A stretch of DNA of 64,000 nt from Patescibacteria group bacterium (lineage in GTDB: Bacteria; Patescibacteriota; Microgenomatia; Levybacterales; UBA12049). The DNA lies in assembly GCA_038061615.1 (NCBI GenBank), contig JBBTYY010000015.1, positions 1,298 to 65,297 on the forward strand. Direction: 5' to 3'. Under the pieces are notes generated by a model. The model was not told the DNA's origin. It ran no database searches and was given only the letters and a program-made list of their open reading frames with translations. Of the stretch, positions 41,121 to 62,979 are shown in pieces. The position numbers were made by a program, and so were the translations under genes. Position 1 is the first letter of the stretch. Each line of letters begins with the position of its first letter.

Positions 41121-41158
41121 ACTTCAATAATCAATAAACATACGACAATAAGCAATAA

Positions 41159-41527: not shown

Positions 41528-41595
41528 ATTTTAATATATGACTATAATCAAAGATCAATAATCATGGGTAGAAAAAATTATTCCTTGTTTTTTGT

Positions 41596-42345: not shown

Positions 42346-42420
42346 ACTTTATGAATTGATTGATTTAAGATTTAAGATTTATGACTTATGACATTTTTCT
42401 TAAGCCTTACTGCATGCATC

Positions 42421-43038
42421 TTATATCTTAACGATTAAATCTTGAGGCAGGTTTCTTCGGACAAAGTCCCACGAGAACGGTGTGCCGTCAGGCATTTTTG
42501 CTTGAGCTTCTGAGTAAGGAACTCTACCTTCTTCTTCGGTATTGTATAGAGCTGTTGGAAAATTCAATAATACTGCGGGTGTTTTTGAAACTACCATAAA
42601 ACCGTGAAGAGTTTTTTTAGGAATAAGTAAAATATAAGGATCTCGATCCGCCTGCATGTGAAAAAGATTTAAAAGACCAAACGTTTCGGAATTTTCCCTG
42701 CTATCTGCAACTGCCGTAATAATTTCTCCATATGCAACTACAAACCTATCTTCCTGATTTGGGTGATAATGCCAAACGTCCTCATCGCGGGCAACGCCTG
42801 AATCAGTAACCGAAAAGTATTGCATGACAAATTCGCGATCCTGTCCATAAATTTCCAGCCAATCATTTCTTAGTGTCTCAACTAAAACGCCGGAATCATC
42901 TCTATTTATCTTAAGGGGATAAGCAATAACATCTTTAATAAGTTTTACGTGATGTTTATTTTTCAAATCTATAAATTCAATCACTGATAAATGATACCAA
43001 AATAAGGGGCGCTCTAACAAGAGCCTTGTTAAGAGCAA
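42421..43038 (-). CDS. RmlC-like cupin (NDP-4-keto-6-deoxy-sugar 3,5-epimerase family)
   Basis: 205 aa. DSGVLVETLRNDW..., HYHPNQEDRFVVAYGEIITAVADSRENSETFG and LHGFMVVS follow the RmlC pattern (RGLH..., Q.KLV.V..G, D.R..SPTFG, HGF). Confidence 0.6.
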   Translation of the reverse strand: MLLTRLLLERPLFWYHLSVIEFIDLKNKHHVKLIKDVIAYPLKINRDDSGVLVETLRNDWLEIYGQDREFVMQYFSVTDSGVARDEDVWHYHPNQEDRFVVAYGEIITAVADSRENSETFGLLNLFHMQADRDPYILLIPKKTLHGFMVVSKTPAVLLNFPTALYNTEEEGRVPYSEAQAKMPDGTPFSWDFVRRNLPQDLIVKI

Positions 43039-44351
43039 GATATGAAAGGAATAATGCTTTTTATTTTTTTAAAACTTCCATATTCTTTTATATATAAGAT
43101 AAAGAGAACAATAAGAACAACTAATGATGCCGAAAGAGAAACATTAATTACCTGAAAGAAAGTTTTGTGAAAAAGCGATATTAGAATCATCTGAGCCAAC
43201 GCACCTGCTCCTACTACGAAAGCTATCTTAGTTTTTTTAATTGACAGGAAAAAATTTACAAATACATTTAATATATTAAAAACCATAATAAAAAGTCCGT
43301 ATGTTCCTAAATACGGAGAAACTTTTGCGTATTCTCGTCCCCCTAAGAAAAAATTTATACTAATAAGCGGAAAAACGTAATAGAATGCAACTATAAAAAT
43401 AGAAGGAATAGTTACTAAAAAAAGAGCCAAATAAAAAAGGGAATTAAAATTCTGTCCCGTACTGTGTCTTTTAATAAGAAGGGGGAACATAACAGAAGAA
43501 ATTGGGCCTGTAAAATAAAATATTACCTTACCAACGAGAGAGAGTCCTCCGTACAAACCAGCATCTTGAGCACTAAAGAAATGTTTTACTAGAATAATAT
43601 CTGTTGAAATTAATGAATTTAAAGATAAAATAGCAATTGAGGCAGGCAAGGCATACTTTATCATATCTCTTAGGGGGAAGTCGATATTCCTAGAGCGTTT
43701 TCTCGCAATTAAAAAACGCAAAGGCAGAAAAGATATTAAAAAAGATACTAAGAATGCAAAAAAAACTGCCCATAAGGCACCAAATACCCTAAGCCCCAAT
43801 ATTACCAATGCTATTCCTATTGTGATCCTTAGAATCGATCCTAAAATTGAAGAAAAGGAAATGAATGGAAATTTGAGGAGGCTTTGCAGAAAGGCTGAAT
43901 TTACCACCGATAGATAAGCTAAGCTTACAATAAGACCAACTTGAATAATATACCAAACATTATCAAGATGTAAAAATTCTTTTAGAAAGATTGAGGAAGC
44001 TGTAAATCCAATAAAAATAAGTAGCGAAAAAACAAACATTAATCGCAGCAATTTAGCATATAAGTCTTTTGCTTCATTTAGTTTATTTTTTGCAAAAAAT
44101 TCTGTCGCAAATCTAATTATTATAGTGATAAGTGATTGCGCCGGAATTACAGCAAGAGTAAAAAGCGATAAAAGACTGGCGTATATTCCATAATCGGCAG
44201 CGGTAAAACTTCTTACTAGGAATAAATTTAAAATAAAAGAAAGAAAACTTGAAACTATTACGCCAATAAAAACAAATATGCTTCCGCTAATCAGCTCATG
44301 CTTGATAAGTTTTTTACCTAATCCAAATATTTTTTTATTCATATTATGCAA
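43029..44351 (-). CDS. Wzx-like oligosaccharide flippase (MOP superfamily polysaccharide biosynthesis protein)
   Basis: 440 aa with 12-14 TM helices and the typical length and hydropathy of PST-family flippases. Confidence 0.65.
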   Translation of the reverse strand: MHNMNKKIFGLGKKLIKHELISGSIFVFIGVIVSSFLSFILNLFLVRSFTAADYGIYASLLSLFTLAVIPAQSLITIIIRFATEFFAKNKLNEAKDLYAKLLRLMFVFSLLIFIGFTASSIFLKEFLHLDNVWYIIQVGLIVSLAYLSVVNSAFLQSLLKFPFISFSSILGSILRITIGIALVILGLRVFGALWAVFFAFLVSFLISFLPLRFLIARKRSRNIDFPLRDMIKYALPASIAILSLNSLISTDIILVKHFFSAQDAGLYGGLSLVGKVIFYFTGPISSVMFPLLIKRHSTGQNFNSLFYLALFLVTIPSIFIVAFYYVFPLISINFFLGGREYAKVSPYLGTYGLFIMVFNILNVFVNFFLSIKKTKIAFVVGAGALAQMILISLFHKTFFQVINVSLSASLVVLIVLFILYIKEYGSFKKIKSIIPFISCS

Positions 44352-45468
44352 TAAAATACCCTCTTAGAAAATAAGAAGTCAGAACAGCTAAAAACACCAA
44401 GGATAAAATTAGTAAGGAAACCTTAAGCAAATTGCTTTTTAGGTCACCCAAGATTATAAAAACCGGAAAAATAATCAAAAGATAGCGAGGAATAGAAGCT
44501 AATGTACCGGAAAGACTTGGTATCATAATAGCTAAAATACCAAAAATCAGATAGGATAATCTAATTTTCTTTATATTAAATACTAAAATAAAAAGAAAAA
44601 TAAAAAATAAACCGAACTCAAGTAGAGCAATAAGAGCATTATGAGTAAAAAAAGGAACTGTTGCAAAAATTTTCAGGTATCTGAAAATAACTTGAGGAAG
44701 GAGAATAACTTCTCCCCCTGATCTTCCCACTCCAAAGGCAGACAGGGAATGAATGAAAAGCAGTGGATCCCCAAACATCTTCCAAAGGTAAAATATATAA
44801 AGTAAAAGACCAGATGAAGAAAATATAATTATAGATATAAGAATTGATGCCGGAAAATTATCGCGGTCTAATTTTCTTTTCTTGTATTTCTGGCAGAATT
44901 CAATAATTATTGAGGGGAGTAAAAGAATTCCTACAAATCGTGTTGCCGAAGAAATTCCACCAAGAAAACTTCCAAGTAGAAAATTAGATTTCCTTACAAA
45001 ATAAAAAGAGACCATAATAGACGCTAGTGATAAAGATTCGGTATAAACGGATGCAAAAAAGAAACTGGTCGGAAAAAATATTAAAAATAGAACCGACCAA
45101 TTTGCTGTTTTCTCACTGTAATCTAGTTTTACAAGTTTATAAAAAAAATATAAGGCAATAAAAAAACTTAGATGTGTTATTATAAGTCCTGATATTAAAT
45201 AATTATTAAAAGAAACAAAAGATAAAAATTTAATAATTAATGGGAAAAAAGGGAAAAAAGCCTGTTGATAAATACCATATCCGTTTTCCGCAATACTCAA
45301 ATAATGCACTCCATCAAGATTTGCCCATGGCACTGGGCCAAGATAGCCTCTATTCAATGGTATTATCTTGGATAAAAACTCTATCAAAAAGAGAAATAAT
45401 CTCCAAGCTGTAAATGCTTTAAAAATAAAAAAAATTACATTTTTATCCTTTTTCCAAAACTTTTTCAT
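44344..45468 (-). CDS. Polytopic membrane protein, PIG-V/GT76-like or related GT-C mannosyltransferase-like
   Basis: 374 aa, ~10 TM. WANLDGVHYLSIAENGY...AFFPFFP resembles the PIG-V family W-D-HY-IA-GY / FFP signature. Confidence 0.45.
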   Translation of the reverse strand: MKKFWKKDKNVIFFIFKAFTAWRLFLFLIEFLSKIIPLNRGYLGPVPWANLDGVHYLSIAENGYGIYQQAFFPFFPLIIKFLSFVSFNNYLISGLIITHLSFFIALYFFYKLVKLDYSEKTANWSVLFLIFFPTSFFFASVYTESLSLASIMVSFYFVRKSNFLLGSFLGGISSATRFVGILLLPSIIIEFCQKYKKRKLDRDNFPASILISIIIFSSSGLLLYIFYLWKMFGDPLLFIHSLSAFGVGRSGGEVILLPQVIFRYLKIFATVPFFTHNALIALLEFGLFFIFLFILVFNIKKIRLSYLIFGILAIMIPSLSGTLASIPRYLLIIFPVFIILGDLKSNLLKVSLLILSLVFLAVLTSYFLRGYFIA

Positions 45469-46510
45469 AAGCCCTAACTGTTTGTTCTGCTGTTTTTTTC
45501 CAGGAAAATTTACCCGATTGCTTAAATCCCGCAGCAGAAAATTCTTTTCTTAATTTTTCATCTTCAAAAACTTCTGTTATGTCTTTTGCTATTTTATCTG
45601 AATCATATGCATCTGTATAAAAAGCCGCATCTCCCGCTACTTCAGGGATTGATCCTTCTTTAGTTGTTATAACGGGACAGCCACATGCCATTGCTTCTAA
45701 GATAGGCAGGCCGAATCCCTCATACAAACTTGGCATTATAAACACGGTTGCCAAATTATATAATACTACTAAGTCTTCTGTTTCAACAAAACCGACCCGC
45801 AAAATATTTTTATTCCCTTCAACTAATTTCTGAACTTCCAATAAATCTTGATTCCAAGGGTTGTTTTTATCAAAGTCGGATGAAACTAGAGTTTTTCCCA
45901 CCATAACCAGTGGAATCCTTGATTTTCTTGCAGCTTCCACTAATCTTGGAAGATTCTTGTTCCATGTAACATCCCCTACATACAAAGCAAACTTTTCCGG
46001 CAAATTATACTTCTCTCGAATTTTCTTAAGTCTTAAGTCATCGGTCTTAAATCTTTTAAATTCTTCTCCTGCGGCCAGATAGATAACTTCAATTTTTTTC
46101 TCACTTACGCCCGTAAATTTAATTATGTCTCTTTTTGAAGATAGTGAATCTGCAATTATTAAATTTGCTTTCCTCAGAGAGGCTTTTTGAATAAGCCACT
46201 TAAAGCCCCCCCTTACTCCTTTTGGGAAATATTTAGGAAAAACCAGAGGCGTTAAGTCATGAACAGTAACTATAGTTTTACATCGATTGAATAGCGGTAA
46301 CGTAATAAAAAATGGCTCGAAGTAAGGATAATGGATTAAATCTGTATCTTTGGATAAATTTTCTCCTCGAACAAAAAAAGTATACTTATTTTTGGGAAAA
46401 TACTTAACCAACGATCTTTTCAGATTGTTAATATAAAAACCAACCCCTCTTACTCTATGCTGAATTAAACCTTTTTTCTCGATTGGTGAAACATCAATAG
46501 CTATTTTCAT
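45443..46510 (-). CDS. GT4 (group 1) glycosyltransferase
   Basis: 355 aa. [33 protein letters not shown] (EX7E motif region). Confidence 0.75.
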
Positions 46511-49289: not shown

Positions 49290-49813
49290 AACGTTTTACT
49301 TCTTATAGCTATAGACGTATCGATAGTTGTCCAAAGATTTAGATTGGTTGGGGTATCTTTCTCCGGCGTCCATTTAAATTTATCAGGAACATTATTTTTT
49401 AATTTTTCAAACTCTTCAATGTGTTTCCTTGAAGCTTCTTTTAAAATTTTCTGTTTTTCGGATGTATTTTTTCCTTCTTTTTTTGCGGAAAGCAAATAAG
49501 GATAAATTTTCTCAAAGTATTGATTGGACTTAAGAAGAGATTTATATGCGAGGAGATATTGTTTATATTCAAATAGGGTTTTTGCTTGCACTAAATATTT
49601 ATCCGAAAGTCTTTGATAATAGTATGACTTACCGAAATTCCCAAAATACCAAAAGTAAGATACTTTTTCTATAACTTGATTAATTGTGTAAAACTTATTT
49701 CCGGGCATTTGTGAAGGATACGGAAGAACATAAGTTGACCCTGCATAAGCAGAAGTCGATAAGTACAAGAAAAAAACGAGGAGAAGTAATGTTTTCCATA
49801 GGCAACTTCTCAT
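49286..49813 (-). CDS. Secreted hypothetical protein (signal peptide)
   Basis: 175 aa. N-terminal MRSCLWKTLLLLVFFLYLSTSAYA signal peptide, Tyr/Lys-rich mature part, no recognisable domain. Confidence 0.45.
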   Translation of the reverse strand: MRSCLWKTLLLLVFFLYLSTSAYAGSTYVLPYPSQMPGNKFYTINQVIEKVSYFWYFGNFGKSYYYQRLSDKYLVQAKTLFEYKQYLLAYKSLLKSNQYFEKIYPYLLSAKKEGKNTSEKQKILKEASRKHIEEFEKLKNNVPDKFKWTPEKDTPTNLNLWTTIDTSIAIRSKTL

Positions 49814-50805
49814 TTTGAATTTTGAATTTTGAATTTTGAATTATTGTTATGCCACTCCCAAGCGGTTTTAACTATTGTCTCTAAGCTTGAATATTTTGGC
49901 TCAAAATTAAGTTCTCGTTTAATTTTTGCAGGATCTGCTATTAAAACTTCTGCGTCCCCTGGTCTTTTATCGGCAATTTTTACTTTAAAATCTATTTCTG
50001 ATACTTTTTTTACCATCTCTAAAACCTCTTTATTAGAATATCCCTTACCGGTTCCGACATTATAGAAAAATCCTCCGTTATCTCTCCCAAGCTTATCCAA
50101 AACAAGAAGGTGAGACTCAACTAAATCTATCACATGAATATAATCGCGAATGCATGTTCCATCCTTCGTATTATAATCATTGCCGTAGAGACTAAGCTCT
50201 GAACCTTCTAAAGCTGCCTTAACAGCAAGAGGAATTATGTGTGTTTCGGGATTATGCTTTTCGCCAAGTCGCGCGTCCAAAGATGCGCCTGCCGCATTAA
50301 AATATCTAAGACTTGCAAAATTTAATCCATAGATCCTGTTATACCATGATAAAATTTTCTCAACCATCAGCTTGCTTTCTCCGTATGGATTTGTGGGATT
50401 TGTCACATGATCCTCGGGAATTGGAATTTTCATTGGATTTCCATAAACACCTGCGGTTGAAGAAAATATAAAAGATCCAACTTTATTTTTTACTGCATTC
50501 TCAATCAGCCTCAATGCCCCAAAAACATTATTCTTAAAGTATATGCTTGGGTTTTCCATTGATTCTGCCATAGAGATGCAACCTGCAAAATGTAGAATTG
50601 AATCAAATTTGTTTTCTTTAAATAAGCTATCGATAAAACTTTCATCTGAAACATCTCCTTCTACTAATCTTGCTCTCGAATCAACAGCTTCTTTGTGTCC
50701 TCGGGACAAGTTATCTAAAACAGTTACCTCATCTCCTCTCTCAAGGAATCTTCTAACCATAAAGCTTCCAATATATCCGGCACCGCCAGTAACAAGTATT
50801 TTCAT
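49810..50805 (-). CDS. galE: UDP-glucose 4-epimerase (GalE-like)
   Basis: 331 aa. MKILVTGGAGYIGS, HFAG, SSTAGVYG, YGESKL and the overall GalE pattern. Confidence 0.8.
   Translation of the reverse strand: MKILVTGGAGYIGSFMVRRFLERGDEVTVLDNLSRGHKEAVDSRARLVEGDVSDESFIDSLFKENKFDSILHFAGCISMAESMENPSIYFKNNVFGALRLIENAVKNKVGSFIFSSTAGVYGNPMKIPIPEDHVTNPTNPYGESKLMVEKILSWYNRIYGLNFASLRYFNAAGASLDARLGEKHNPETHIIPLAVKAALEGSELSLYGNDYNTKDGTCIRDYIHVIDLVESHLLVLDKLGRDNGGFFYNVGTGKGYSNKEVLEMVKKVSEIDFKVKIADKRPGDAEVLIADPAKIKRELNFEPKYSSLETIVKTAWEWHNNNSKFKIQNSK
49812..49839. repeat. (ATTTTGA)x4 tandem heptamer at a gene junction
   Basis: Directly visible. Encodes the C-terminal NSKFKIQNSK of the GalE-like gene and overlaps the start of the downstream gene. 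Confidence 0.9.
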
Positions 50806-50813
50806 AGTTTGTA

Positions 50814-50841
50814 AGCCTTAAAGACTTAAGACTTAAGACTT
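50814..50841. repeat. (AGACTTA)x3 + AGACCTA tandem heptamer filling the intergenic spacer
   Basis: Directly visible between the galE start codon and the stop of the four-helix-bundle gene. The same TAAGACN/AAGTCTT heptad family recurs at 42363-42397, 51208-51235, 51682-51716, 59957-60023 and 61662-61749. Confidence 0.9.
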
Positions 50842-51202
50842 AAGACCTAAGTTTCCAATATTTTATCAAGGAATTTACCATTTTGCTAATTTCTTCTGCA
50901 TCCATCTGTAAATTATCGTAGGTAGATTTCGAAATATAGCCTAAATCCATGGAAAGGATAAGATAGTATTTAACCTCTTCTAGAGATCCGTTTGAAATAT
51001 ACAAAAACTGAATAAATTCTTTCTTATGGTTTCTAGCATTTCCTTCTATAATATTTGCAACAATCGAAACACTAGCTCTTCTGATTTGACTTATTAATCC
51101 AAATGTCTCGTGTTGAGGAAACGTTTTAGTGATTTTATAAATTTTAATTACGAATTGATGAGCTTTTTTATAAACTTTTAAACTTTCGAATTTGTTTGCC
51201 AT
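50840..51202 (-). CDS. Four-helix-bundle protein (TIGR02436 / '23S rRNA IVS protein' family), second copy
   Basis: 120 aa. YKITKTFPQHETFGLISQIRRASVSIVANIIEGNAR. Bracketed on both sides by TAAGACN-type heptamer tracts. Confidence 0.7.
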   Translation of the reverse strand: MANKFESLKVYKKAHQFVIKIYKITKTFPQHETFGLISQIRRASVSIVANIIEGNARNHKKEFIQFLYISNGSLEEVKYYLILSMDLGYISKSTYDNLQMDAEEISKMVNSLIKYWKLRS

Positions 51203-51216
51203 AATGCTCTTACTTC

Positions 51217-52014
51217 TTAAGTCTTACGTCTTAAATACTTTACATACGCTACGGGAAATCGAAGGGAAGAAAAAAGAGAAAACACAAATCCCGGCCAGAG
51301 ATCCATAAAACCTTTATGTCTGAAATAAGTAATCAAAAACCAATGCGGAGGTTTTAAGAACACAAGTCCCAACCCATACAAAATTTTTTGAAATCTGTTC
51401 TTATTTTTAAGTTTATCTTTGGTTTGGCTTGAGATAAGACCTGTATATCTGCTCCATTTCAATATATATTCAGAAAAATCTTTGTAAGGATAATGCAATA
51501 ACGCTTCATCTAAATATCCCACTTCGCCATCTACCTCCGCCTGCTCATGAACATCTTTTTGCGGAAGTCTTCCTCTGCCTCTTTTATAGAGTCTTAAGGT
51601 GTAATCCGGATATTGCCCTCCTTTTAATAAAAACCGTCCCAAAAACCAATTTTTTCTGGGAATCCAATAACCGTTGATATCAGACTTAGGACTTAAGACA
51701 TAAGACTTATGAGATAAAATTTCTTTAATTTCATTTGCAAGTTCAGGTGTAACTCTTTCGTCTGCATCAAGCTGAAGTATCCAATCACAAGTTGCCATAT
51801 CAATTGCCATCTGTTTATTAATATGAAAAACGGGTTTGTTTGTTGTTATTTTTATCCTTGCCCCAAATTTTTTGGCAATTTCAACAGTTTTGTCTTTTGA
51901 TGAACCATCTACCACAACTATCTCATCGGCAATATCTTTTATACTGTTAAGACATGCGGAAAGATTATTTTCTTCATTATATGTTGCCAAAACCACGGAA
52001 AGAGTTTTTCCCAT
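51217..52014 (-). CDS. GT2 glycosyltransferase
   Basis: 265 aa. LSVVLATYNEENNL, IVVVDGSSKDKT and QLDADE (DxD). Confidence 0.75.
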   Translation of the reverse strand: MGKTLSVVLATYNEENNLSACLNSIKDIADEIVVVDGSSKDKTVEIAKKFGARIKITTNKPVFHINKQMAIDMATCDWILQLDADERVTPELANEIKEILSHKSYVLSPKSDINGYWIPRKNWFLGRFLLKGGQYPDYTLRLYKRGRGRLPQKDVHEQAEVDGEVGYLDEALLHYPYKDFSEYILKWSRYTGLISSQTKDKLKNKNRFQKILYGLGLVFLKPPHWFLITYFRHKGFMDLWPGFVFSLFSSLRFPVAYVKYLRRKT

Positions 52015-52026
52015 GTAATGATGATA

Positions 52027-53679
52027 CTAAGAAAGCCTCATTTTTACAAACTTAAACAATAAGAAACCTATTATATTGAGGCTAACTACTATAGATATGG
52101 CATCGGATAGCGCTCTGATCTTTGTTTCTTTATAGTATACCTCCACAAGGTAGCTACCCTTGTCTAATCTAAATGTCATGATTCCACGATAATGAGGATC
52201 TTGAAATTCCATATCCACAGATTTTTTGTTTGCAAAAATATTCCAGCCGGGAAAATATAAAGTATTTTCCGCAAATAATGTCTTTCCTAAAACATCAACG
52301 TTATATAAATGATATGTTGAAATTCTTTTTAATTCTTTTACAGTCGCTTTACCGTCTAAAACTTCCAGATGAGTCTTCGGTCTTTTTTCCATAAACCGTA
52401 CAGACCAAATTGGTGCGCTTTCTCCTGTATCTGTAGTACTGTTGTAAATACCCGTAAAAAATTCATCTGGATTTTGCAGATATCCGTTTGCCCTTACATA
52501 GTCTTTACTTTGAAACAAAATAATTAGAAGAAGCAAAACAAAAATTATTTTTTTAAATTTACTTGGAACCGCAGAAATAAAATATGCTCCCAAAACTGAA
52601 GTCGTAAAAACTATTACTGCTAAAAAACGCCAGGGAAATTGGAAGTTTTGAAGAAGAATAAATTTTGACCAAATAAAATTAGATTCCTTAAACATTAAAA
52701 ACAAAGCAAAAAAGGAGATTATAATTAATACTGAAATCAGAGTGTAATTTTTATTTTTCTTTCGATAATAATGAAATAATGCAAAAGGTGAGAAGAGCAA
52801 ACTCAACCATGAACCTATACCAAACTGAACGGTAAATTGCCCCGAGCCTCCATAGCTCCAAGAACTGTAAAGCAGATCTTTTAAATTAACAAACCGGGTT
52901 ATGTAACTACCTTTAGTAACAATATTTCTTAAAGTATATTTCCCTTCCATAAGACCAGGAATCCAAAAAAACGCAGAAAGCGAAAAACCGATCAGTATTA
53001 AGAATAAGGTATTAAGTATTAAGTATTTATTAAATTTCGATAACCAAATAAGATAGAAACAATAAGCGAGAATAAATGGTACTAACATTAAGCTTATTGC
53101 GTTGTGGGATAAAATTAGAAGAGCCAAGGATATAGCTCCAAAGATAGAATATTTATATTTTTGATCCTTATATAACTTATATAAAAAGTAGAGAGTGAGC
53201 GGGATAAATGCAAAAGCTAAATTCTCTCCAATATCTCCTCTGACGTACAAGTCAACAAATCTATAGGGAGCATAAGTGTATAAAATAGCGCCTAAAACCG
53301 CAGGAATTTCTCCCAAAAAAGAAGAAAGCCATAAATACATAAAAGCCAAAGACAAAATCATCCCTAAGCCAAAAACAATTTTTACAGAATCAACCAAGGA
53401 AAAACCTACAAAGTGAAAAAATGAAGCGATGTAAGACGGCAGGGGGTACAAAAACTCCAAGATCGGATGCCCGTAGCCCCAATTTAAATTCCCTGCCCAT
53501 CTTGGAATAATGTTTCCTTCCGAAAGATTTTGATAAAAATTGGCAATTCTTGCAACATGATCCTGCCCATCATGCGTAATCGGAAGACCGGCAGAGAGCA
53601 ATGATACTACAGGCAGGATAGCAAGAACAATGAGAGCTATAAAGATTGCTTTATTTTTTATTAGTTCCATAAACTTCAA
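52027..53679 (-). CDS. PTPS-related (PF10131-like) polytopic membrane protein, paralogue of 46507..48156
   Basis: 550 aa. AGLPITHDGQDHVARIANF...IPRWAGNLNWGYGHPILEFLYPLP, ~10 TM, and a C-terminal periplasmic domain. Includes a heptad tract at 52994-53028. Confidence 0.65.
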   Translation of the reverse strand: MKFMELIKNKAIFIALIVLAILPVVSLLSAGLPITHDGQDHVARIANFYQNLSEGNIIPRWAGNLNWGYGHPILEFLYPLPSYIASFFHFVGFSLVDSVKIVFGLGMILSLAFMYLWLSSFLGEIPAVLGAILYTYAPYRFVDLYVRGDIGENLAFAFIPLTLYFLYKLYKDQKYKYSIFGAISLALLILSHNAISLMLVPFILAYCFYLIWLSKFNKYLILNTLFLILIGFSLSAFFWIPGLMEGKYTLRNIVTKGSYITRFVNLKDLLYSSWSYGGSGQFTVQFGIGSWLSLLFSPFALFHYYRKKNKNYTLISVLIIISFFALFLMFKESNFIWSKFILLQNFQFPWRFLAVIVFTTSVLGAYFISAVPSKFKKIIFVLLLLIILFQSKDYVRANGYLQNPDEFFTGIYNSTTDTGESAPIWSVRFMEKRPKTHLEVLDGKATVKELKRISTYHLYNVDVLGKTLFAENTLYFPGWNIFANKKSVDMEFQDPHYRGIMTFRLDKGSYLVEVYYKETKIRALSDAISIVVSLNIIGFLLFKFVKMRLS

Positions 53680-54946
53680 TCCCTTTTTTTCTCATTAAAT
53701 AATAATATACATAAGATTCAGGTACTCCGGCCTGGAATCCTATTTCTCTTCCTTCACGAATTGCTTTTTTTACTGTTTTTTCTCTATCATATAAACCAAC
53801 GTCCTTATAGGAAATAATAGTATTTAATCCGTTTATGGAATAACCTAGAATAAAAATTATAATAACTATTTTACCTAGCAAAAACTTTGTAGTAAAGACA
53901 AGATTTATAAAGTAAACAATAATAAGTAGCGCAATAAATCTATTTACTGCAAAGTAGTAATCACTTATCTCCCCACTATACAATGAAAAAATTACCCATG
54001 GTACTAAAAACCACAGAGCGATAAGGTAACAGATTTTTTTTGCTTCTAAGCTTGTATTCTTCTTAAGATATATCAGAAAAAAAAGAGGAACTAATATAAT
54101 TTTTAAAGGCTTGAGCCTCTCAAGTAAAATATAGGGATCAAATTGTATTAGAGCATCTCCAATCAATTGGGACATTCTTCTTAAATGAAATCCATGATAA
54201 GCATCAGAGAAATAAGCTGTGTTGGAAATATAGTTCTTGCTAGCAATTAAATAAATTATATTTGGTGTAATACTTGCTATCAAAATTGAAATTGCAATAA
54301 ATCCGTATTTTAATGTCTCCCTGGTCCTTGGAAACAAGGGTAATGAAAATAAAATTATCAGAGAAAAGAATATTGAAGTGAAATGGAGACTAAAAGAGAA
54401 ACCTACTGCAATAGATAATGGAATTATTTTTTTTACATCCCCCAAGGTTATCTTATAAAGAAGGTGGAAGATTAATAACGATACCGTTGGTAAAAGCTGC
54501 ACTGGCCATTGAACCCTATCAAACATAATCGCATTAAAACTAAAAGAATTTAACAACAGTGCGATAATTGCTGCCTCAAGGGACAAAAGTTTTTTAAAGA
54601 TAATAAATATCATCCAAAATGTAAAAATACCAGAAAATACTGCAATTGCCTGAGATGCAATAGGGTTTAAATTAAAAATGAAGTAAAAAAAAGACACAAT
54701 GTAATAGTATAGAGGTCCTACATATACTCCGCTATTTGCCTTTGCAACCATACCAACCAATGGAAATTTATGATTGACAATTATATTCATAGCTGCCCAA
54801 GCATTATCCACCTGATCATATCCGAAAGGATTTTTTATATCGAGCTGATATGTTCTTGTAAAAAGATTAAGCAGAAATATAGCAGAAATTACTAAAATAA
54901 TTTTATTATTTTTCAATAACTTCAAGTATTTTTTAATTTTTTTCAT
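53651..54946 (-). CDS. ArnT/GT83-like GT-C membrane glycosyltransferase (tandem paralogue 1, shortest)
   Basis: 431 aa. FGYDQVDNAWAAMNIIVNHKFPLVG...GPLYYYI at the N-terminus parallels the FGFDQGRDY...HKLTLIG...GPFYYY of its neighbours. ~11 TM. Lacks most of the C-terminal soluble domain. Confidence 0.55.
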   Translation of the reverse strand: MKKIKKYLKLLKNNKIILVISAIFLLNLFTRTYQLDIKNPFGYDQVDNAWAAMNIIVNHKFPLVGMVAKANSGVYVGPLYYYIVSFFYFIFNLNPIASQAIAVFSGIFTFWMIFIIFKKLLSLEAAIIALLLNSFSFNAIMFDRVQWPVQLLPTVSLLIFHLLYKITLGDVKKIIPLSIAVGFSFSLHFTSIFFSLIILFSLPLFPRTRETLKYGFIAISILIASITPNIIYLIASKNYISNTAYFSDAYHGFHLRRMSQLIGDALIQFDPYILLERLKPLKIILVPLFFLIYLKKNTSLEAKKICYLIALWFLVPWVIFSLYSGEISDYYFAVNRFIALLIIVYFINLVFTTKFLLGKIVIIIFILGYSINGLNTIISYKDVGLYDREKTVKKAIREGREIGFQAGVPESYVYYYLMRKKGIEVYGTNKK

Positions 54947-56456
54947 CTTCTTCTATCCGCTTTTGAATTATAAATCCGCTCGGTAAAGTTTTTGTATAAA
55001 CAACATCACCGGTTTTGATAACAGTCTCGAGCCAGCCTTCATAAGTCCATGGCTTATGAGGATCGGGCTCGATCAAAAGATAAAATACTCCTTTTTTTTC
55101 ATTATGAGGAATATAACCATATTTTTTTTGCCCATGCCACCAAAGTAAATAATCATAAGGATAAGTATATATTGGAGGAGTAAAAATTAGAAGTTCAAAC
55201 TTTTCTCCCTTGGCATCTTTATAAATGTAATCTATTGCATCAATTTTTCCTTTTACTTTCGCAGTGCCTCCATAATCAAAATAGTCTCTTGTATAGACAT
55301 TTACTGTATAAGAAAAATATACTGCAAAAAAATAAAAAATTATTACAAAAAAGGTTATCTTACCCAGAAGATGTTTTCTAAAAAAATAGATAAGAATAAT
55401 TCCTATAAGAAAACAATAAAATATGTATAACTGTAAAGCCCACCATGTCCACATGTGATCTTTATAAATCATGAAAATAGCAAAAAGTAAAAATGGATTT
55501 GAAACAAGGTAAAAAACAAAAGCTTTTTTTTCAAATACTTGATTTTTGTCTTTTATAAATAAGATGCTACCCAGCACCAAAATTAAAGCAATAATTTGCC
55601 AAAACTCACCAATAAAGGGAAACATTGATGAAAAGCTTGATGAGAAAATTGCGAAATGATTCATGAAGATACTCTCCGCAAGCTTGTTTGCTGTCGGGGA
55701 ATTAAGTGAAGGGAATAATAAATTCATTATTCCTTTTGTATTTAGAAATTCATGTCTCAAGTCAAAAATTATAAGCGGCAGGAGGGGTAAGAGAAAGCCA
55801 ATGATAAATCTGAGTAAAGACCTTCCTGTTATAATTTTTTTCCAAATTAGAAAAGGCACAAATAAAATTGATTGAAAAAGAAGACTTCCGCTAGTTGCGA
55901 TTTCAAAATGAGATATAAGACCAATGGTAAGACCTAAGAATCCCAAGTATTCTTTTTTACCCTGCAGTATTTTATAAATGAAATACAGAAAGAATACTGA
56001 TAAAAGAGATATAGGAAATGGAGGCCATATAAACCTAGACTGAGCAATTATATTTGGAGAAACCGCAATTAAAAATCCTATTATAACTCCTTCCTGCCAG
56101 CTAAATATTTTCTTAGTGAGGAGTATTGCGGAAACAACCGTAGCAATACCAATAATTAACATCAAAACCATCCCCCCATACGGATCTCCCCCAAAAATAA
56201 TAAAGGGAATTGCAAGTAGGTAATACCAACCCGCTCCTTGAAAAAATCCTCCGATCCCGCCCACTTGAGTTCCAATTAAAGTTAATTTATGATCAACAAC
56301 AATTTTTTTGACATCATTGTAGAATTGTCCTTGATCAAATCCAAATAAATAATTCCCGCTTAAAACTTCAACGGATCTTGGAATTAAGGCAAGTACTAGA
56401 ATAAAAATGCTAATTAATAAAAATTTTCTTTTAATTATTTTTTTAATTATTTTCAT
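54933..56456 (-). CDS. ArnT/GT83-like GT-C membrane glycosyltransferase (tandem paralogue 2)
   Basis: 507 aa. FGFDQGQFYNDVKKIVVDHKLTLIG, GDPYGGMVLM, ~11 TM. C-terminal periplasmic domain DAIDYIYKDAKGEKFELLIFTPPIYTYPYDYLLWWHG is shared with paralogues 3 and 4. Confidence 0.7.
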   Translation of the reverse strand: MKIIKKIIKRKFLLISIFILVLALIPRSVEVLSGNYLFGFDQGQFYNDVKKIVVDHKLTLIGTQVGGIGGFFQGAGWYYLLAIPFIIFGGDPYGGMVLMLIIGIATVVSAILLTKKIFSWQEGVIIGFLIAVSPNIIAQSRFIWPPFPISLLSVFFLYFIYKILQGKKEYLGFLGLTIGLISHFEIATSGSLLFQSILFVPFLIWKKIITGRSLLRFIIGFLLPLLPLIIFDLRHEFLNTKGIMNLLFPSLNSPTANKLAESIFMNHFAIFSSSFSSMFPFIGEFWQIIALILVLGSILFIKDKNQVFEKKAFVFYLVSNPFLLFAIFMIYKDHMWTWWALQLYIFYCFLIGIILIYFFRKHLLGKITFFVIIFYFFAVYFSYTVNVYTRDYFDYGGTAKVKGKIDAIDYIYKDAKGEKFELLIFTPPIYTYPYDYLLWWHGQKKYGYIPHNEKKGVFYLLIEPDPHKPWTYEGWLETVIKTGDVVYTKTLPSGFIIQKRIEEDEKN

Positions 56457-56459
56457 AAA

Positions 56460-57956: not shown

Positions 57957-57972
57957 AGATTTGGATTTCTCT

Positions 57973-59508
57973 TTATTCTTTAAATAAACGTTTCTGAATA
58001 ATAAAACCGCTTGTAAGTTGTTCTGTATTTATAACATCACCATCTTTTATCACAGTTTCAAGCCATCCCTGATAGCTCCATGGTTTTGACGTATCTTTTT
58101 CAATAAGAAGATACACAAGTCCTTTTTTCTCCTGATGTGGAGCATAGCCATATTTTTTCTTTCCATACCAAGAAACAAGATAATCATAGGGATAAGTATA
58201 TATAGGAGGACTAAATACCAGTAATCCAAATCGTTCTCCATCAGCGTTTCTATAAATATGATCTATCGCATCGATTTTTCCTCTAATTTTATGGGTTCCG
58301 CCATAGTCAACGATATCATAATAAAACGTTTTAATATTAGAAAAAATACTAGATAACAATACGATTGCTATAAATATAATGATAAACCCATCTACTATCT
58401 TATGTCGCGTTTTAAAAATAGATGCAATGGCGAAAACGACTAAAAATATATAGGCAAGATTAAGATGAATGAGATAATAATTGTATACAAAGTTTCTCAA
58501 AAATCCTAAAACAATAAATGTAACGGGTATAAGAAGCAAAAGATACAAAATAAATTTCTTTCTTTCTTTATCTTTCTCTTTTATAACAAAATAAAAAATG
58601 ATAGGAATAATCGTAATAATTGCTATTGAAGGAATAATGATTTGCGAAGGGAATGTAGACAAAAAATTATTAAAGAACACCAGTAGATGATCACGTAAAA
58701 GCAACACCCAAAATGCTTGCGTCGTTGCAGTCTCTGGATGGTTGAAAATATAAATCGAAAGTCCTTTTATCGCTTGGAATCCATGACGAATTTCGAAAAA
58801 AAACATAGGTGAAAAAGCCAGAATCGTTCCAAGAAATAATACTCCATACTGCTTAATGTGTTTAAGCTTGAGTACCAATACGCAATATATGAAGAGAGTA
58901 AGAAATAAGGGAATTGCTATCGCCAATTGAAAATTGTATACAAAACTTGAGAAAAAGGAAGCCCAAAAAAGGTATTTTGTTCTTCCTTTTTTAGTAAAGA
59001 GGAATACGAAATAAAATCCAAGCAAGATAAATAATGGCGCGGGATTAGAATTCCAAATAAACCTTGAGTACGAGATAAAAGGCGGGGAAACTGCAATTAT
59101 GGTTGCTATTAACAATCCAACTTTTGCTCCAAAGAGCCTCCTTCCGATAATATAGCAAAAAAAAATCGTTGCAATTCCTAATATAAACATCAATACCATT
59201 CCCCCATAAGGATCTCCCCTAAAAATTATGAAAGGCAATGCAAGTAAATAATAATAAAAAGGTCCATGGAAAATACCCCTAAATCCAGCAACACCCGCTC
59301 CTATTTCTGACCCAATGAGAGTTAACTTATGATCTACTACGATATTTTTTACCGCAAGATAATCTCTTCCCTGATCAAATCCAAAAAGAAAATTTCTATT
59401 TACAACCTCCACCGACCTTAAAGCTATACCTGAAACAAGTACGAAAAAAAATAATATATAAATAAAGGACTTAAAATTTACAAACTTATAAAATATATTT
59501 TTCTTCAT
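57973..59508 (-). CDS. ArnT/GT83-like GT-C membrane glycosyltransferase (tandem paralogue 4)
   Basis: 511 aa. FGFDQGRDYLAVKNIVVDHKLTLIG, GDPYGGMVLMF and a C-terminal AIDHIYRNADGERFGLLVFSPPIYTYPYDYLVSWYG domain. Confidence 0.7.
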   Translation of the reverse strand: MKKNIFYKFVNFKSFIYILFFFVLVSGIALRSVEVVNRNFLFGFDQGRDYLAVKNIVVDHKLTLIGSEIGAGVAGFRGIFHGPFYYYLLALPFIIFRGDPYGGMVLMFILGIATIFFCYIIGRRLFGAKVGLLIATIIAVSPPFISYSRFIWNSNPAPLFILLGFYFVFLFTKKGRTKYLFWASFFSSFVYNFQLAIAIPLFLTLFIYCVLVLKLKHIKQYGVLFLGTILAFSPMFFFEIRHGFQAIKGLSIYIFNHPETATTQAFWVLLLRDHLLVFFNNFLSTFPSQIIIPSIAIITIIPIIFYFVIKEKDKERKKFILYLLLLIPVTFIVLGFLRNFVYNYYLIHLNLAYIFLVVFAIASIFKTRHKIVDGFIIIFIAIVLLSSIFSNIKTFYYDIVDYGGTHKIRGKIDAIDHIYRNADGERFGLLVFSPPIYTYPYDYLVSWYGKKKYGYAPHQEKKGLVYLLIEKDTSKPWSYQGWLETVIKDGDVINTEQLTSGFIIQKRLFKE

Positions 59509-59530
59509 GCCTATTAGTAGATTAATTATA

Positions 59531-61255
59531 TTATTTATCGACCACTCTTATTGCTGAAGATTTATCGGGATAGTCAATCCTTGTGATGGTATGGAATTCT
59601 TCAGCAAAATCATCTTGACCTCCAACTAGTAATATATTATTTTCTTTTTCAGTGTAGTAATTAAAGGATCTAAATTCAAAAATATCAAATTTATTGCCAC
59701 CTTCTTTAAATCCTCCTGATCTTGTACCACCTTGACTTAAATATTTATATGGATCATATTTTGAATAAAATAGAAAAAACATATATGACTGATCCATTAT
59801 CCCCACATTCGAGACGATTATCTTATTGTAATTTTTATGAATAGGCGCAATAAAATCTACTATTTCCTTGTATCCATATTGCCAATACTTCGCATGAAAA
59901 TAATTTTGCTGAACAAAGTACTGATTAAGATAGTAAACAAAGTTTACTACAGTAAATAAGACGTAAGACGTAAGACCTAAGATTAATAAATATTTTCTTA
60001 AGTCATAAATCTTAAGTCTTAAATACGAAGCTCTGACGGAATAAAGAATTTGAATTATTCCTATTGCAGTAAACACCTGAAAAGTAGGAAGAAAGTTTAA
60101 GGTGCGAACCGCATGAGGGACTCCGCTTGTGATTGAAGCCGGAATTGGAGCAATCAAAAACCAGGAGAATATAAATAATTTTGTTTTTTTATCAAATTTG
60201 CCAAAAATCAAACCATAGATGCCTATAAAAAAGAAAGGAAATTCAAATAAGTACAAAAGTCCCATATTTGGCGCGTGATGCCTTGATATGTCTCCTGTAA
60301 TGAATAGCCAATTTAAATCTAAATGAGATAGATAGCCTCCGGCTACATATTTTGCGAATTCTATTCTACGATTATCTAAGACTAATCCCAAGATGTCGTT
60401 ATTTGCTTTATCTCTTGCAATTTTTTCTGTATTTGCCTCAATTATTGAAGCGTTCGAAAAAATACTAACTCCCTTAGCCCTAGAAAGCGCATCCTTATTT
60501 GTTAAGGTAAAAAGAATCAATGGCAGACAAATAATTGTAAAGATTATGAGTGATATGTATATATATTTTTTTCTTATTGAAAAAAACTCTTTTCTAAAAG
60601 AGGATACAAGAATAGCTATCAGAAGAGGAACGAAAACTTTCTCGCTTTGATATACATGAAGACTCAATCCCAACATCAAAGCACTTAATAATAAAAACCA
60701 TGGTTTTTTAAAGGCTTTTAGGAAAAACAATATTCCAAAAACATTTAGAGCCACACCAACGTTTGCCTCAAATGCAACTCGGGAAAATTGAATATGCCAT
60801 GGAGAAATTGCAAGAAGGAAGGCTGATAGCAGCGCTATCATCTCAGTATTTAGTATTTTGTATTTAGTATTTTGTATTTGTTTAGGATTTAGAATTTCGG
60901 ATTTTGGATTTGTTTTGAACAACTCTTTAACCAAAAAGTAAGTAGCAATTACAGCAAGCACGCCAAAAACTGCCGAAGGAAGCCTTACAGCAAATGTATT
61001 TAAGCCAAATAATGCAACTGCAGGAATAGAAAAATATGCGTAAAGAGCAGGTTTGTAGTCATCAAAAGACCTAAGAACAATCGGCAGAAACTTACCGTAC
61101 TCGTCTCTTCCTGTATGCAAAAGAGAGTAGGCATTGTAACCTAAGGCAACTTCGTCCCAGTCAGGAGAAATTGGAACTTTTCCAAAATCCCAAAGTCGAA
61201 GAATTGCCGCTGTGAACAAAATTAAGCCCAAGATTATCAAAACTTTCTTATTCAT
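59531..61255 (-). CDS. PMT/ArnT-type (GT39/GT83-like) GT-C membrane glycosyltransferase (second-family paralogue 1)
   Basis: 574 aa. The N-terminal loop WDFGKVPISPDWDEVALGYNAYSLLHTGRDEYGKFLP carries a DE motif and a ~45 aa first periplasmic loop as in ArnT/PMT. ~12 TM and a C-terminal soluble domain. Contains heptad tracts at 59957-60023 and 60845-60914. Confidence 0.75.
   Translation of the reverse strand: MNKKVLIILGLILFTAAILRLWDFGKVPISPDWDEVALGYNAYSLLHTGRDEYGKFLPIVLRSFDDYKPALYAYFSIPAVALFGLNTFAVRLPSAVFGVLAVIATYFLVKELFKTNPKSEILNPKQIQNTKYKILNTEMIALLSAFLLAISPWHIQFSRVAFEANVGVALNVFGILFFLKAFKKPWFLLLSALMLGLSLHVYQSEKVFVPLLIAILVSSFRKEFFSIRKKYIYISLIIFTIICLPLILFTLTNKDALSRAKGVSIFSNASIIEANTEKIARDKANNDILGLVLDNRRIEFAKYVAGGYLSHLDLNWLFITGDISRHHAPNMGLLYLFEFPFFFIGIYGLIFGKFDKKTKLFIFSWFLIAPIPASITSGVPHAVRTLNFLPTFQVFTAIGIIQILYSVRASYLRLKIYDLRKYLLILGLTSYVLFTVVNFVYYLNQYFVQQNYFHAKYWQYGYKEIVDFIAPIHKNYNKIIVSNVGIMDQSYMFFLFYSKYDPYKYLSQGGTRSGGFKEGGNKFDIFEFRSFNYYTEKENNILLVGGQDDFAEEFHTITRIDYPDKSSAIRVVDK
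60845..60914. repeat. Ten consecutive 7-nt-periodic units (agtattt agtattt tgtattt agtattt tgtattt gtttagg atttaga atttcgg attttgg atttgtt)
   Basis: Directly visible. Lies inside CDS 59531..61255 and encodes NPKSEILNPKQIQNTKYKILNTE in the first periplasmic region. Confidence 0.85.
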
Positions 61256-62979
61256 AATTCATAGGCAACAAGAGTTGGCTCTCCGTTTAAAAGATAAAAC
61301 GTTTTTAAAATTTTTGCGTTATTAGGTGTATTTTGTGCAGAATTTACGTAAAGAACTTTTTTATTTGATACATCTTTTAAATCTTTTAAGAAACGGTATT
61401 TGCCATATCCTTTCACATTTACAAAACCAAAAACTTCTCTTTCAACCTTTGCGGTTTTTTTAAATTCTCCGGGGGGGGTTTTTGTATAAAATAAATAATA
61501 AATATAAGGCCTGCCCAGCTCGGTAGTAATATTTATTTGGTCATAATTGCCATAAACACTTGATACATAATTGATAGATTCTTTATATCCATATTGCCAT
61601 TCACCCGAATATATTCTTTTGTAGTGAACTAAATAGTCATGATAGAAGTATAAAAAGTTTATAAGAAGTAAGACGTAAGATATAAAACTAATTGTTATAA
61701 ATAATTTCCCTTTTAGAAAATTCTTAAGTCTTAAGTCATAAGTCTTAAGTCCTGAAATGAAATGATAGAATCCATAAGCTGTGAGGATCTGAAATGTTGG
61801 TAAGACAGTCTCAATTCTTAAAGCATGGGGCGTTTCTCTCGCTGTTGCTGCCGGAATAATGCCGACAATAAGCCAGATAGGAATTATCCACCATAAACCC
61901 TCTCTTTTTCTAATTAAGAATAAAATGCCTGCTATGAAAAAAGGAAGATCCCATAAAAACATTTCTCCGACTGTTTGAGTGGAAAATTTAGGATTACCAT
62001 CGCCCCTTATGAACAAAAAGTTGGGGCTTAGGTTATCGAAATAATGTTTTATATATTCAACCCCATAAACAAGTCTTCTGTTGTGAATTAGTTTTGACCA
62101 AAAAGCGTTATTATCATTTGCAATTTCTTGGTTTGATGTTTTAATTACGTTTATATCCGAAAAAATATTTACCTCTTTAAAACGGAGACTCGCTTGCGGA
62201 GTCAAGATAAATTGCGCAAGGGGTATAATCATAATTAAGCCGATCAGGGAAGCTATAACAACTTCTTTCTTTCTATCAAAAAGTTCTTTCCTAAAACCTA
62301 TTGCCAAACCCAAAATAAGAAGCGGTGCCACAACTCTTGCGGTATTGAATGTATACATTGACAAAATAAAAGAAATTACAGAAAGAGAAAGCAATAATAA
62401 AAACCTTAACCCTAGGGCGTCAATAGGTTTCCACCCCCGGGGTGGAAACGAGGCTGCACCTTGGGATTTTACAGAATTTACTGCGGTTAGAAACAAAAAA
62501 ACACCCAAGACAATAAAAAATGTGGCAACATTTGCTTCGAATGCGGCGCGGGAAAGCATAATATGCCAAGGAGATATCGCAAGTATTAATGCTGACATTA
62601 GGGCATAAAATTCTTTTAATTTTGATTTCCAAAAAATTCTTTTGACTAAAAAATAAGTTGCAATAACCGTTAATACTCCAAACAGAGCAGAGGGAAATCT
62701 AACCGCAAATTCATTAAGTCCGAATATTTTAACAGGTAATACATCTAAATAAGCATAAACCGGAGGCTTGAAGTCTCCAAAAGATTCAAGGTAATCAAGA
62801 GGTAAAAATCTTCCGAATTCATCTCTACCATCAATCCCTATTGAGTAAGCATTATATCCCCAAGCCGCCTCATCCCACGTGAGAGAAGGAGGATTATTGC
62901 CTAGCTGATAAAATCGCAGGAAAAAAGCTAAAAAAATAATTCCAGCAAGAATAATAAATGTTTTGCTTCTAATACTCAT
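61252..62979 (-). CDS. PMT/ArnT-type GT-C membrane glycosyltransferase (second-family paralogue 2)
   Basis: 575 aa. YQLGNNPPSLTWDEAAWGYNAYSIGIDGRDEFGRFLP. Same architecture as 59531..61255, with an ATGA overlap. Confidence 0.75.
   Translation of the reverse strand: MSIRSKTFIILAGIIFLAFFLRFYQLGNNPPSLTWDEAAWGYNAYSIGIDGRDEFGRFLPLDYLESFGDFKPPVYAYLDVLPVKIFGLNEFAVRFPSALFGVLTVIATYFLVKRIFWKSKLKEFYALMSALILAISPWHIMLSRAAFEANVATFFIVLGVFLFLTAVNSVKSQGAASFPPRGWKPIDALGLRFLLLLSLSVISFILSMYTFNTARVVAPLLILGLAIGFRKELFDRKKEVVIASLIGLIMIIPLAQFILTPQASLRFKEVNIFSDINVIKTSNQEIANDNNAFWSKLIHNRRLVYGVEYIKHYFDNLSPNFLFIRGDGNPKFSTQTVGEMFLWDLPFFIAGILFLIRKREGLWWIIPIWLIVGIIPAATARETPHALRIETVLPTFQILTAYGFYHFISGLKTYDLRLKNFLKGKLFITISFISYVLLLINFLYFYHDYLVHYKRIYSGEWQYGYKESINYVSSVYGNYDQINITTELGRPYIYYLFYTKTPPGEFKKTAKVEREVFGFVNVKGYGKYRFLKDLKDVSNKKVLYVNSAQNTPNNAKILKTFYLLNGEPTLVAYEL

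Follow-up and report, generated by a model that had tools for sequence, protein, structure and literature searches.

Heptanucleotide tracts in a patescibacterial glycan locus as candidate arms of intervening-sequence-type hairpin elements

Heptad tracts and two PF05635 cassettes in a glycan-biosynthesis locus

The stretch analyzed here (the window) comprises 64,000 nt of contig JBBTYY010000015.1 from a Patescibacteria group bacterium (assembly GCA_038061615.1, positions 1,298 to 65,297 of the forward strand). Our subject is the tandem heptanucleotide repeats (heptads) that it contains, chiefly those with the unit TAAGACN, together with two genes for four-helix-bundle proteins that such repeats flank. 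The window, with a GC content of ~33%, is one very large glycan-biosynthesis locus. The minus strand carries almost all of its genes, which encode sugar epimerases, aminotransferases, methyltransferases, GT2 and GT4 glycosyltransferases and ~10 GT-C / PMT_2-like membrane glycosyltransferases; the nearest named relatives of the encoded proteins belong to Candidatus Levybacteria. Pfam scans of essentially all open reading frames (ORFs) in the window revealed no reverse transcriptase, transposase or recombinase. The sequence matches, with full identity, ENA contig Hain_H52_01um_R2_95 (76 kb), which comes from the 0.1 µm fraction of Hainich groundwater, and was also found in the metagenome-assembled genome GCA_964366505.1. 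Because the tracts recur, unchanged, in independent assemblies, they are not assembly artefacts.

A lag-autocorrelation scan of the window (score of at least 9) detected 20 tracts of period 7, compared with 0.7 in shuffled sequences (~30 times chance), and 0-5 tracts for each of the periods 4-6 and 8-12, which are not enriched; the heptad tracts were also confirmed by Tandem Repeats Finder. As period 7 alone is enriched in the window, chance and low complexity were ruled out. The main heptad family is TAAGACN, found at nine sites within 20 kb, so that a preferred unit is dispersed over many sites as in heptanucleotide repeat families. An initial annotation of this DNA had asked whether the motif is more frequent than base composition predicts, and the counts show that it is: TAAGACNTAAGAC, allowing up to two mismatches, matches 51 times, against 6.59 ± 2.64 expected (largest shuffle 14). 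These matches are confined to 42-62 kb, bar three scattered two-mismatch ones at 6.5, 20.5 and 27.5 kb. Every tract that the annotation listed was located where it had placed it, and the repeat family that it described as common to spacers and coding DNA is real. The bracketing of a four-helix-bundle gene, which it named only in passing, proved to be the most informative feature and holds in the 80 loci described below.

The TAAGACN unit consists of a 6-bp palindrome, CTTAAG, plus one base (A or T, according to orientation); owing to this palindromic core, forward and inverse tracts differ at only one position in seven. Heptad arrays occur as hairpin arms with or without a PF05635 gene and as single tracts, and the TAAGACN family takes all these forms: opposed arms around a PF05635 gene, gene-less hairpins and single arms. 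Many unrelated heptad units coexist with it in the window. Three tracts (14472-14502, 15232-15272 and 49812-49842) are perfect, with 4.4-5.9 units, and most tracts are imperfect. The two gene-bearing cassettes consist of the following parts.

50806-50851, minus strand: 3' arm of cassette 1; coding strand CTTAGGT, three times CTTAAGT, then CTTTAAGG
50840-51202, minus strand: four-helix-bundle gene of cassette 1; 120 aa, PF05635 (23S rRNA intervening sequence protein, S23p)
51203-51236, minus strand: 5' arm of cassette 1; coding strand TTTAAGACG TAAGACT TAAGAAG TAAGAGC ATT, then ATG
41118-41162, minus strand: 3' arm of cassette 2; TTATTG-type heptads
41159-41527, minus strand: four-helix-bundle gene of cassette 2; 122 aa, PF05635 (E = 2.2e-31)
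41585-41611, minus strand: 5' arm of cassette 2; coding strand ACAAAAA ACAATAA ACAAAAA ACAAGGA

Read on its coding strand, cassette 1 (50806-51236) has the layout (TAAGACN)4, 120-aa gene, (NGTCTTA)5. The 5' arm, in which a tract was called at 51208-51234, encodes the C-terminus and stop codon of the upstream GT2 gene (LRRKT*). Its heptamers TAAGACG TAAGACT TAAGAAG TAAGAGC lie directly upstream of the four-helix-bundle ORF and stop 4 nt short of the ATG. The 3' arm, in which 5.6 units of TAAGACT were called at 50812-50851, contains the stop codon of the four-helix-bundle gene (protein end ...KLRS*) and finishes ~6-10 nt ahead of the epimerase gene's start codon. The encoded protein matches PF05635 with E = 4.7e-42 and a bAvd-like profile with E = 2.9e-13. 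When 50800-51245 is folded, the arms pair around the whole ORF in both the minimum-energy and the centroid structure, so the ORF forms the loop of a predicted ~30-bp stem in the operon transcript. The neighbours of the cassette are the GT2 and epimerase genes and not rRNA, and it thus does not have the 23S helix 25/45 location. One related Levybacteria locus lacks the cassette. Cassette 2 (41118-41611) is laid out in the same way and uses another heptad unit; the two PF05635 proteins are 37% identical. Its 5' arm overlaps the end of the GT2 gene at 41596-42345, additional GATTATT-type heptads lie at 41545-41570, and the 3' arm overlaps two codons, the stop of the four-helix-bundle gene and the start of the GT4 gene that comes next. 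Pairing of the two arms (ACAAnAA-type and TTATTGn-type) is seen in the minimum-energy fold only, not in the centroid.

Three further inverted pairs enclose no gene.

42348-42440, minus strand: gene-less hairpin in the RmlC-like/GT2 spacer; AAGATTT / AAATCTT arms, z = -3.2
59957-60023, minus strand: gene-less hairpin in frame in the GT39 gene 59531-61255; aa 410-433, LRLKIYDLRKYLLILGLTSYVL
61662-61751, minus strand: gene-less hairpin in frame in the paralogous GT39 gene 61252-62979; homologous position

In the spacer hairpin, 42362-42392 reads GATTTAA GATTTAA GATTTAT GACTTAT GAC and the partner arm spans 42397-42440. For the two GT39 genes (called PMT-like in the initial annotation), hairpins formed by the inverted tracts had been proposed, and RNA folding supports both: the region 59950-60030 folds at -26.2 kcal/mol (z = -7.4), and the region 61655-61760, which has a longer loop, folds more weakly at -18.8 kcal/mol (z = -2.6). 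In the former, the spacing between 59957-59982 and its inverse 59996-60024 is 11-17 nt, according to how the arm ends are set; in the latter, 61662-61680 and its inverse 61722-61751 are separated by ~32-40 nt. The encoded peptides are as the annotation had read them, LRLKIYDL...SYVL and LKTYDLRLK...SYVL. In the AlphaFold model of the GT39 protein encoded at 59531-61255 (mean predicted local distance difference test score 75.7), the 59957-60023 hairpin encodes a turn of four residues together with the helix end before it and the helix start after it, and the tract-encoded segments score 54-67, below their neighbours. The GT39 hairpins are palindromic repeats translated in frame at sites that homologues lack. 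The copies share the heptad unit alone; the lengths of arms and loop vary from site to site, so that they do not form a defined-length consensus with terminal repeats and target-site duplication.

Opposed heptad arms at PF05635 genes in 80 loci

A search of one genome per species for relatives of the two window PF05635 proteins left 80 loci from Patescibacteria, Bacteroidota, Planctomycetota, Acidobacteriota, Verrucomicrobiota, Firmicutes, Chloroflexota, Nitrospirota, Cyanobacteria and other phyla. None of the 80 contains 23S motifs or lies in a 23S rRNA gene. The arrangement of a four-helix-bundle gene with heptad arms is general over this set: the density of period-7 tracts is 2.9/kb within ~170 nt of the PF05635 gene ends versus 0.24/kb in the rest (~12-fold), and periods 4-6 and 9-12 stay at or below 0.09/kb. 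When non-ORF DNA is taken alone, the corresponding densities are 4.8/kb near PF05635 genes and 0.52/kb elsewhere. A tract near an end was seen in only 20% of other genes; for the 87 four-helix-bundle genes, tracts stand upstream of 36, downstream of 45 and on both sides of 27.

The two flanks of these genes are inverted with respect to one another. The best ungapped inverted flank match has a median of 13, compared with 8 for direct matches and 7.4 for shuffled sequence (76 loci), and a match of at least 14 was obtained in 35 of the 76 loci for the inverted orientation and in 7 for the direct one. AG is present in 34 of 45 upstream units versus 11 of 52 downstream units, and CT in 4 of 45 versus 39 of 52. 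From these counts, the arms read (AGNNNNN)n ... (NNNNNCT)n on the coding strand, the remaining five arm positions varying among lineages. Both the inverted symmetry and the AG/CT polarity hold across phyla, units without a palindromic core included. Dispersed tracts also often carry the arm unit of their own locus (29 of 78, allowing one mismatch; pairing across loci predicts 3.9), so the pattern of arms plus dispersed copies seen for TAAGACN recurs in other genomes. Inverted heptad pairs that enclose no gene recur in other loci as well.

Tracts of period 8 were also denser beside PF05635 genes (0.80 versus 0.06/kb in loci L010-L089); some arms may be built of octamers, or of heptads that have gained or lost bases.

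Placement and variation of the tracts

Non-coding DNA makes up 2.7% of the window and holds 5-6 of 21 tracts, at gene junctions, a ~9-fold enrichment; 15 of the 21 lie within coding sequence, in every case that of GT-C-like membrane proteins or of GT2 / GT4 linkers. At the junctions the arm's first in-frame TAA terminates the upstream gene, and the arms stop 4-17 nt ahead of the next start codon. In coding tracts the sole unit with a potentially in-frame TAA reads TAT (three tracts) or GAT (one). That this triplet is mutated in all four indicates that selection for an open frame has shaped the tracts. Heptad arrays are retained solely where the damage is slight: between genes, at their junctions, and in loops or linkers that are permissive. 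Beyond the cassettes and hairpins, the window holds the following tracts.

51680-51716 (also called as 51682-51717), minus strand: single TAAGACN-family tract in the GT2 gene 51217-52014, in frame, encoding SHKSYVLSPKS
46023-46056, minus strand: single TAAGACN-family tract in the interdomain linker of the GT4 gene 45443-46510, in frame
49812-49842, minus strand: perfect (ATTTTGA)4.4 at the epimerase / DUF5667 junction
52994-53027, minus strand: 4.9 units of AGTATTA in the GT-C gene 52027-53679, in frame
60845-60915, minus strand: AGTATTT / TTTAGGA heptads in the GT39 gene 59531-61255, in frame, aa 114-137
14472-15272, minus strand: four in-frame heptad tracts in the membrane-protein ORF 13607-15793 (4.4 units of ATTGAAA, ATTTTTG-type, 5 of AAAGTAT, 5.9 of TAATTTG)

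Sequence variation is concentrated at several of these sites. Over 14.4 kb, strain L008 differs from the window by one single-nucleotide polymorphism and 37 further differences, the latter all in 51677-51756. In this ~80-nt patch of the GT2 gene, L008, and also L002, has the AAGTCTT-type tract and ~30 nt replaced by (AACTCAG)4 and different sequence, with differences at all base types and in length. GT4 proteins more than 90% identical to one another diverge mainly around the 46023-46056 tract, with scattered single substitutions elsewhere. Across 24 GT39 homologues, site 1 (aa 114-137) is missing in about half and carries different heptad-encoded peptides in the others, and at site 2 (aa 410-433) the heptad-encoded peptides differ or are lacking; both sites are insertion/deletion hot spots. 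At the DNA level, perfect (GAAATTG)4.9 and (AAATTTC)4.4 occupy the two sites in orthologues, without hairpin potential. The presence of different perfect heptads in orthologues marks the GT39 sites as permissive hot spots at which young tracts replace one another. The initial annotation had suggested an active repeat-generating or recombination process, and this stands insofar as the tracts coincide with unusually dynamic sequence, namely the GT2 patch, the GT4 divergence and the GT39 hot spots.

Pairing and copy number were followed across relatives. When the GT39 hairpin is set against its L100 orthologue (57% identity in protein), 21 of its 23 pairs are retained. Seven changes leave the pair intact as wobble, a single one is compensatory, and none of the transitions disrupts a pair. 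This comparison of sequences gives modest support to pairing in the mRNA. No unit-number difference was found at any tract in a small sample of 5-10 independent near-identical assemblies, and in every assembly seen the coding tracts all remain in frame, with no frame switch. Several short-read contigs from other samples (L106, L107, L109 and L110) end inside or just before the perfect (TAATTTG)5.9 at 15232-15272; these ends probably represent assembly breaks at the repeat, not polymorphism.

On a larger scale, the identity profile against L003 is mosaic, and two of the four block boundaries fall within ~100 nt of tracts. The segment ~50750-51350, which comprises cassette 1 plus ~150 nt from the end of the GT2 gene and ~55 nt from the beginning of the epimerase gene, shows 95.6-99.7% nucleotide identity to L003 and L010, and the genes flanking this island are only 50-82% identical in the same loci. 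This suggests either lateral replacement of the island or nucleotide-level constraint. In place of the tract at 49812-49842, a relative (L003 and L006) carries at the homologous site another heptad together with a ~70-nt GC-rich palindromic mini-element. Peptide footprints of GC-rich palindromes (PAFAKASAGRQ, FDFAQGK and PASSSEAGRAE) are also nested in the heptad-encoded insertions of GT39 homologues (P0025, P0053, P0055, P0062, P0075 and P0113). A second class of small repeat may thus use heptad tracts as landing sites.

Relation to known elements and weighing of explanations

The cassettes resemble the intervening sequences of rRNA genes described in Coxiella burnetii and Leptospira, in which a PF05635 ORF is looped out by an inverted-repeat stem and of which both ORF-bearing and ORF-less versions are known (PMC4990558). 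In the 23S rRNA intervening sequence of Coxiella, the S23p ORF lies within a 28-bp stem of terminal inverted repeats that is cut by RNase III, and 2-3 tandem GACAGAT heptamers, their number varying among strains, stand just upstream of the ORF (PMC4990558). GACAGAT can be rotated to AGATGAC, which matches the AGNNNNN pattern. The present elements differ in lying between glycan-operon genes and in frame within protein genes, and in having both arms visibly built of heptads.

The tracts share other features with the heptanucleotide families of bacteria, among them GGGAATC of Xanthomonas, with 70-75 convergent inverted pairs per genome, mostly intergenic (PMC4692102), the lineage-specific GGGGA(C/T)T of Nostoc and the heptamers of Calothrix (PMC4692102), and TAACTGA of Beggiatoaceae, which occurs within a few nt upstream of start codons and is also present in Cyanobacteria and Bacteroidetes (PMC4679880). 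As here, each lineage has one preferred unit, mostly in arrays of 2-6 near gene ends or starts that vary between close relatives; the inverted convergent pairs of Xanthomonas are a further likeness. The family here differs in its unit, its Patescibacteria host and the location of most tracts within coding sequence. With these families (PMC4679880, PMC4692102) and the Coxiella intervening sequence (PMC4990558) already described, the initial annotation's phrase "undescribed small repetitive element" was overstated. Term searches of PMC4679880 and PMC4692102 returned no mention of a link to PF05635. In the literature, our incomplete coverage of which leaves an earlier description possible, we found none tying PF05635 genes in general to heptamer arms.

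Rickettsia palindromic elements, likewise, are palindromic repeats found in frame in protein genes and translated as extra peptides at permissive sites; they are ~100-150 bp long and have a defined consensus with no tandem 7-nt substructure. In contrast, the copies described here have only the heptad unit in common, and their lengths vary. Heptanucleotide tandem repeats also accompany surface-structure genes at the hmw contingency loci of Haemophilus influenzae, where they lie upstream and an RNase III-targeted element of the 5' untranslated region is involved (PMC8262952, PMC12721329). The tracts of the window, unlike those of hmw, are short, often imperfect and always in frame, with no copy-number polymorphism found. 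Finally, PF05635 has been described as resembling Avd, an accessory protein of diversity-generating retroelements (PMC10053308), and the four-helix-bundle proteins here match the bAvd-like profile. A diversity-generating retroelement was ruled out, as the 64-kb window has no reverse transcriptase and the variable GT2 patch is not adenine-specific, varying at all base types.

We favour, with moderate confidence, the reading that the TAAGACN tracts are arms of hairpin elements of intervening-sequence type. Because they lie outside 23S rRNA, we file them both as a variant of the rRNA intervening sequences and as a member of the heptanucleotide repeat families. The arrays would arise and turn over by slippage in 7-nt steps and by short-patch recombination, and their stems might, by analogy with the rRNA intervening sequences, be double-stranded RNA substrates for RNase III; such processing has been demonstrated for the Coxiella intervening sequence. 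On this reading the elements would be mostly selfish or neutral passengers, possibly modulating mRNA processing. Several observations weigh against this reading. The fold statistics of whole cassettes are weak (z only -1.6), and the window has neither rRNA nor any Rfam match at the gathering score or at E <= 1, a lack that also rules out a known RNA family. The order of GT2, four-helix-bundle and epimerase genes is shared by at least ten contigs that encode this protein, and there is no sign of recent transposition of the cassette. Two GT39 orthologues (L103 and L104) have heptads of a single orientation at the hairpin site (z ~0.5), ruling out the hairpin as a conserved feature of GT39 site 2. 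Over 71 cassettes, arm mismatches compatible with G.U number 93 and A.C mismatches 108; a general excess of G.U, sought as a mark of selection at the RNA level, was thus not found, and no overall sign of selection on the sense RNA strand is seen. Only 4-5 of the ~21 window tracts lie near a four-helix-bundle gene, most being elsewhere. Among 120 metagenome loci with exact (TAAGACT)x2.9 (GC 0.30-0.72), a PF05635 gene lies within 300 nt in 4 and an inverted partner is present in 6. The association consequently runs one way, from gene to repeat only, and heptad tracts are far more widespread than PF05635 cassettes.

The same metagenome loci, in which three TAAGACT units are almost never seen beside a PF05635 gene, would fit generic heptanucleotide simple repeats produced by 7-nt polymerase slippage, the hairpins and the bracketing being by-products of the CTTAAG core and of scarce free DNA. 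In many bacteria heptamers are indeed more abundant than any other class of longer simple repeat, with polymerase slippage proposed to explain it (PMC4679880, PMC4692102), and both the many unrelated units in one window and the young perfect tracts of differing units at the same sites in orthologues agree with such an origin. We nevertheless consider it unlikely, given the recurrence of one unit at nine sites within 20 kb, the sharing of arm units with dispersed tracts elsewhere, the 9-12 fold enrichment adjacent to PF05635 genes, even within non-ORF DNA, and the inverted symmetry and AG/CT polarity that extend across phyla to units lacking the palindromic core. It is quite improbable that the tracts are cis-acting signals in polycistronic mRNA: most lie in coding sequence, distant from start codons, the units vary between sites of one operon, and no regulator was identified. 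Such a role would account for the ends of junction tracts ~4-17 nt before the next start, for TAA in every frame and for AG every 7 nt in the 5' arms, and it has a parallel in the position of the Beggiatoaceae TAACTGA repeats (PMC4679880).

Two further explanations attach to the surface glycan. Recombination junctions at which glycosyltransferase modules or short patches are swapped between strains, diversifying that glycan, are suggested by the 80-nt replacement exactly at the GT2 tract in an otherwise identical strain, by the mosaic identity to L003 and by the near-identical cassette island amid diverged flanks; these events are few, the other block boundaries lie away from tracts, and the window encodes no recombinase, which makes this explanation very unlikely. 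Phase variation, in which one 7-nt unit gained or lost would change the reading frame and turn surface-glycan genes on or off, appears highly improbable in view of the constant copy number among near-identical assemblies, the open frame of every coding tract and the imperfection of most tracts, even though the unit length is no multiple of three, tracts lie within glycosyltransferase genes, three of them are perfect, and heptamer number does vary among Coxiella strains (PMC4990558).

The locus and the 80-locus comparison bring together three oddities: the dominance of heptanucleotide repeats, the origin of rRNA intervening sequences and the role of S23p, a very common "four helix bundle protein" and free-standing relative of the retroelement protein Avd. 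They display a single anatomy, a gene in a hairpin whose arms are heptad arrays of conserved AG / CT polarity, in non-rRNA contexts and in many phyla. One could go beyond the intervening-sequence reading and speculate that PF05635 genes with opposed heptad arrays constitute a widespread, unrecognised class of hairpin cassette, of which rRNA intervening sequences are a special case and the STRR, GGGAATC, TAACTGA and TAAGACN families the arms, gene-less derivatives and debris; the protein would then bind, propagate or maintain its own arrays. We regard this wider proposal as rather doubtful. In the streamlined genome of an ultra-small groundwater patescibacterium, the repeats form part of the reading frames of membrane glycosyltransferases, where they mark hypervariable patches, and they are of relevance to annotation, to assembly (contigs break in tracts) and to the diversification of surface-glycan genes.

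Some minor observations concern the locus as a whole. The ~10 GT-C / PMT_2-like paralogues stand consecutively at 44-63 kb, a large number for a small Patescibacteria genome. Several locus genes (GT39, GT4 and epimerase) were called as 2-3 fragments in L005 (39 kb) and L004 (159 kb); the long-read contig of L004 is rich in insertions and deletions, and the fragmentation in both is therefore likely to be sequencing error. Features absent from the initial annotation comprise the tract at 46023-46056, the partner arm at 42397-42440, the gene at 41159-41527 with its arms, the tract at 49812-49842 and those of ORF 13607-15793. A weak further TAAGACN-like site (TGAGATATAAGAC ... TAAGACCTAAGAA) is present at 55909-55940, inside ORF 54933-56456.

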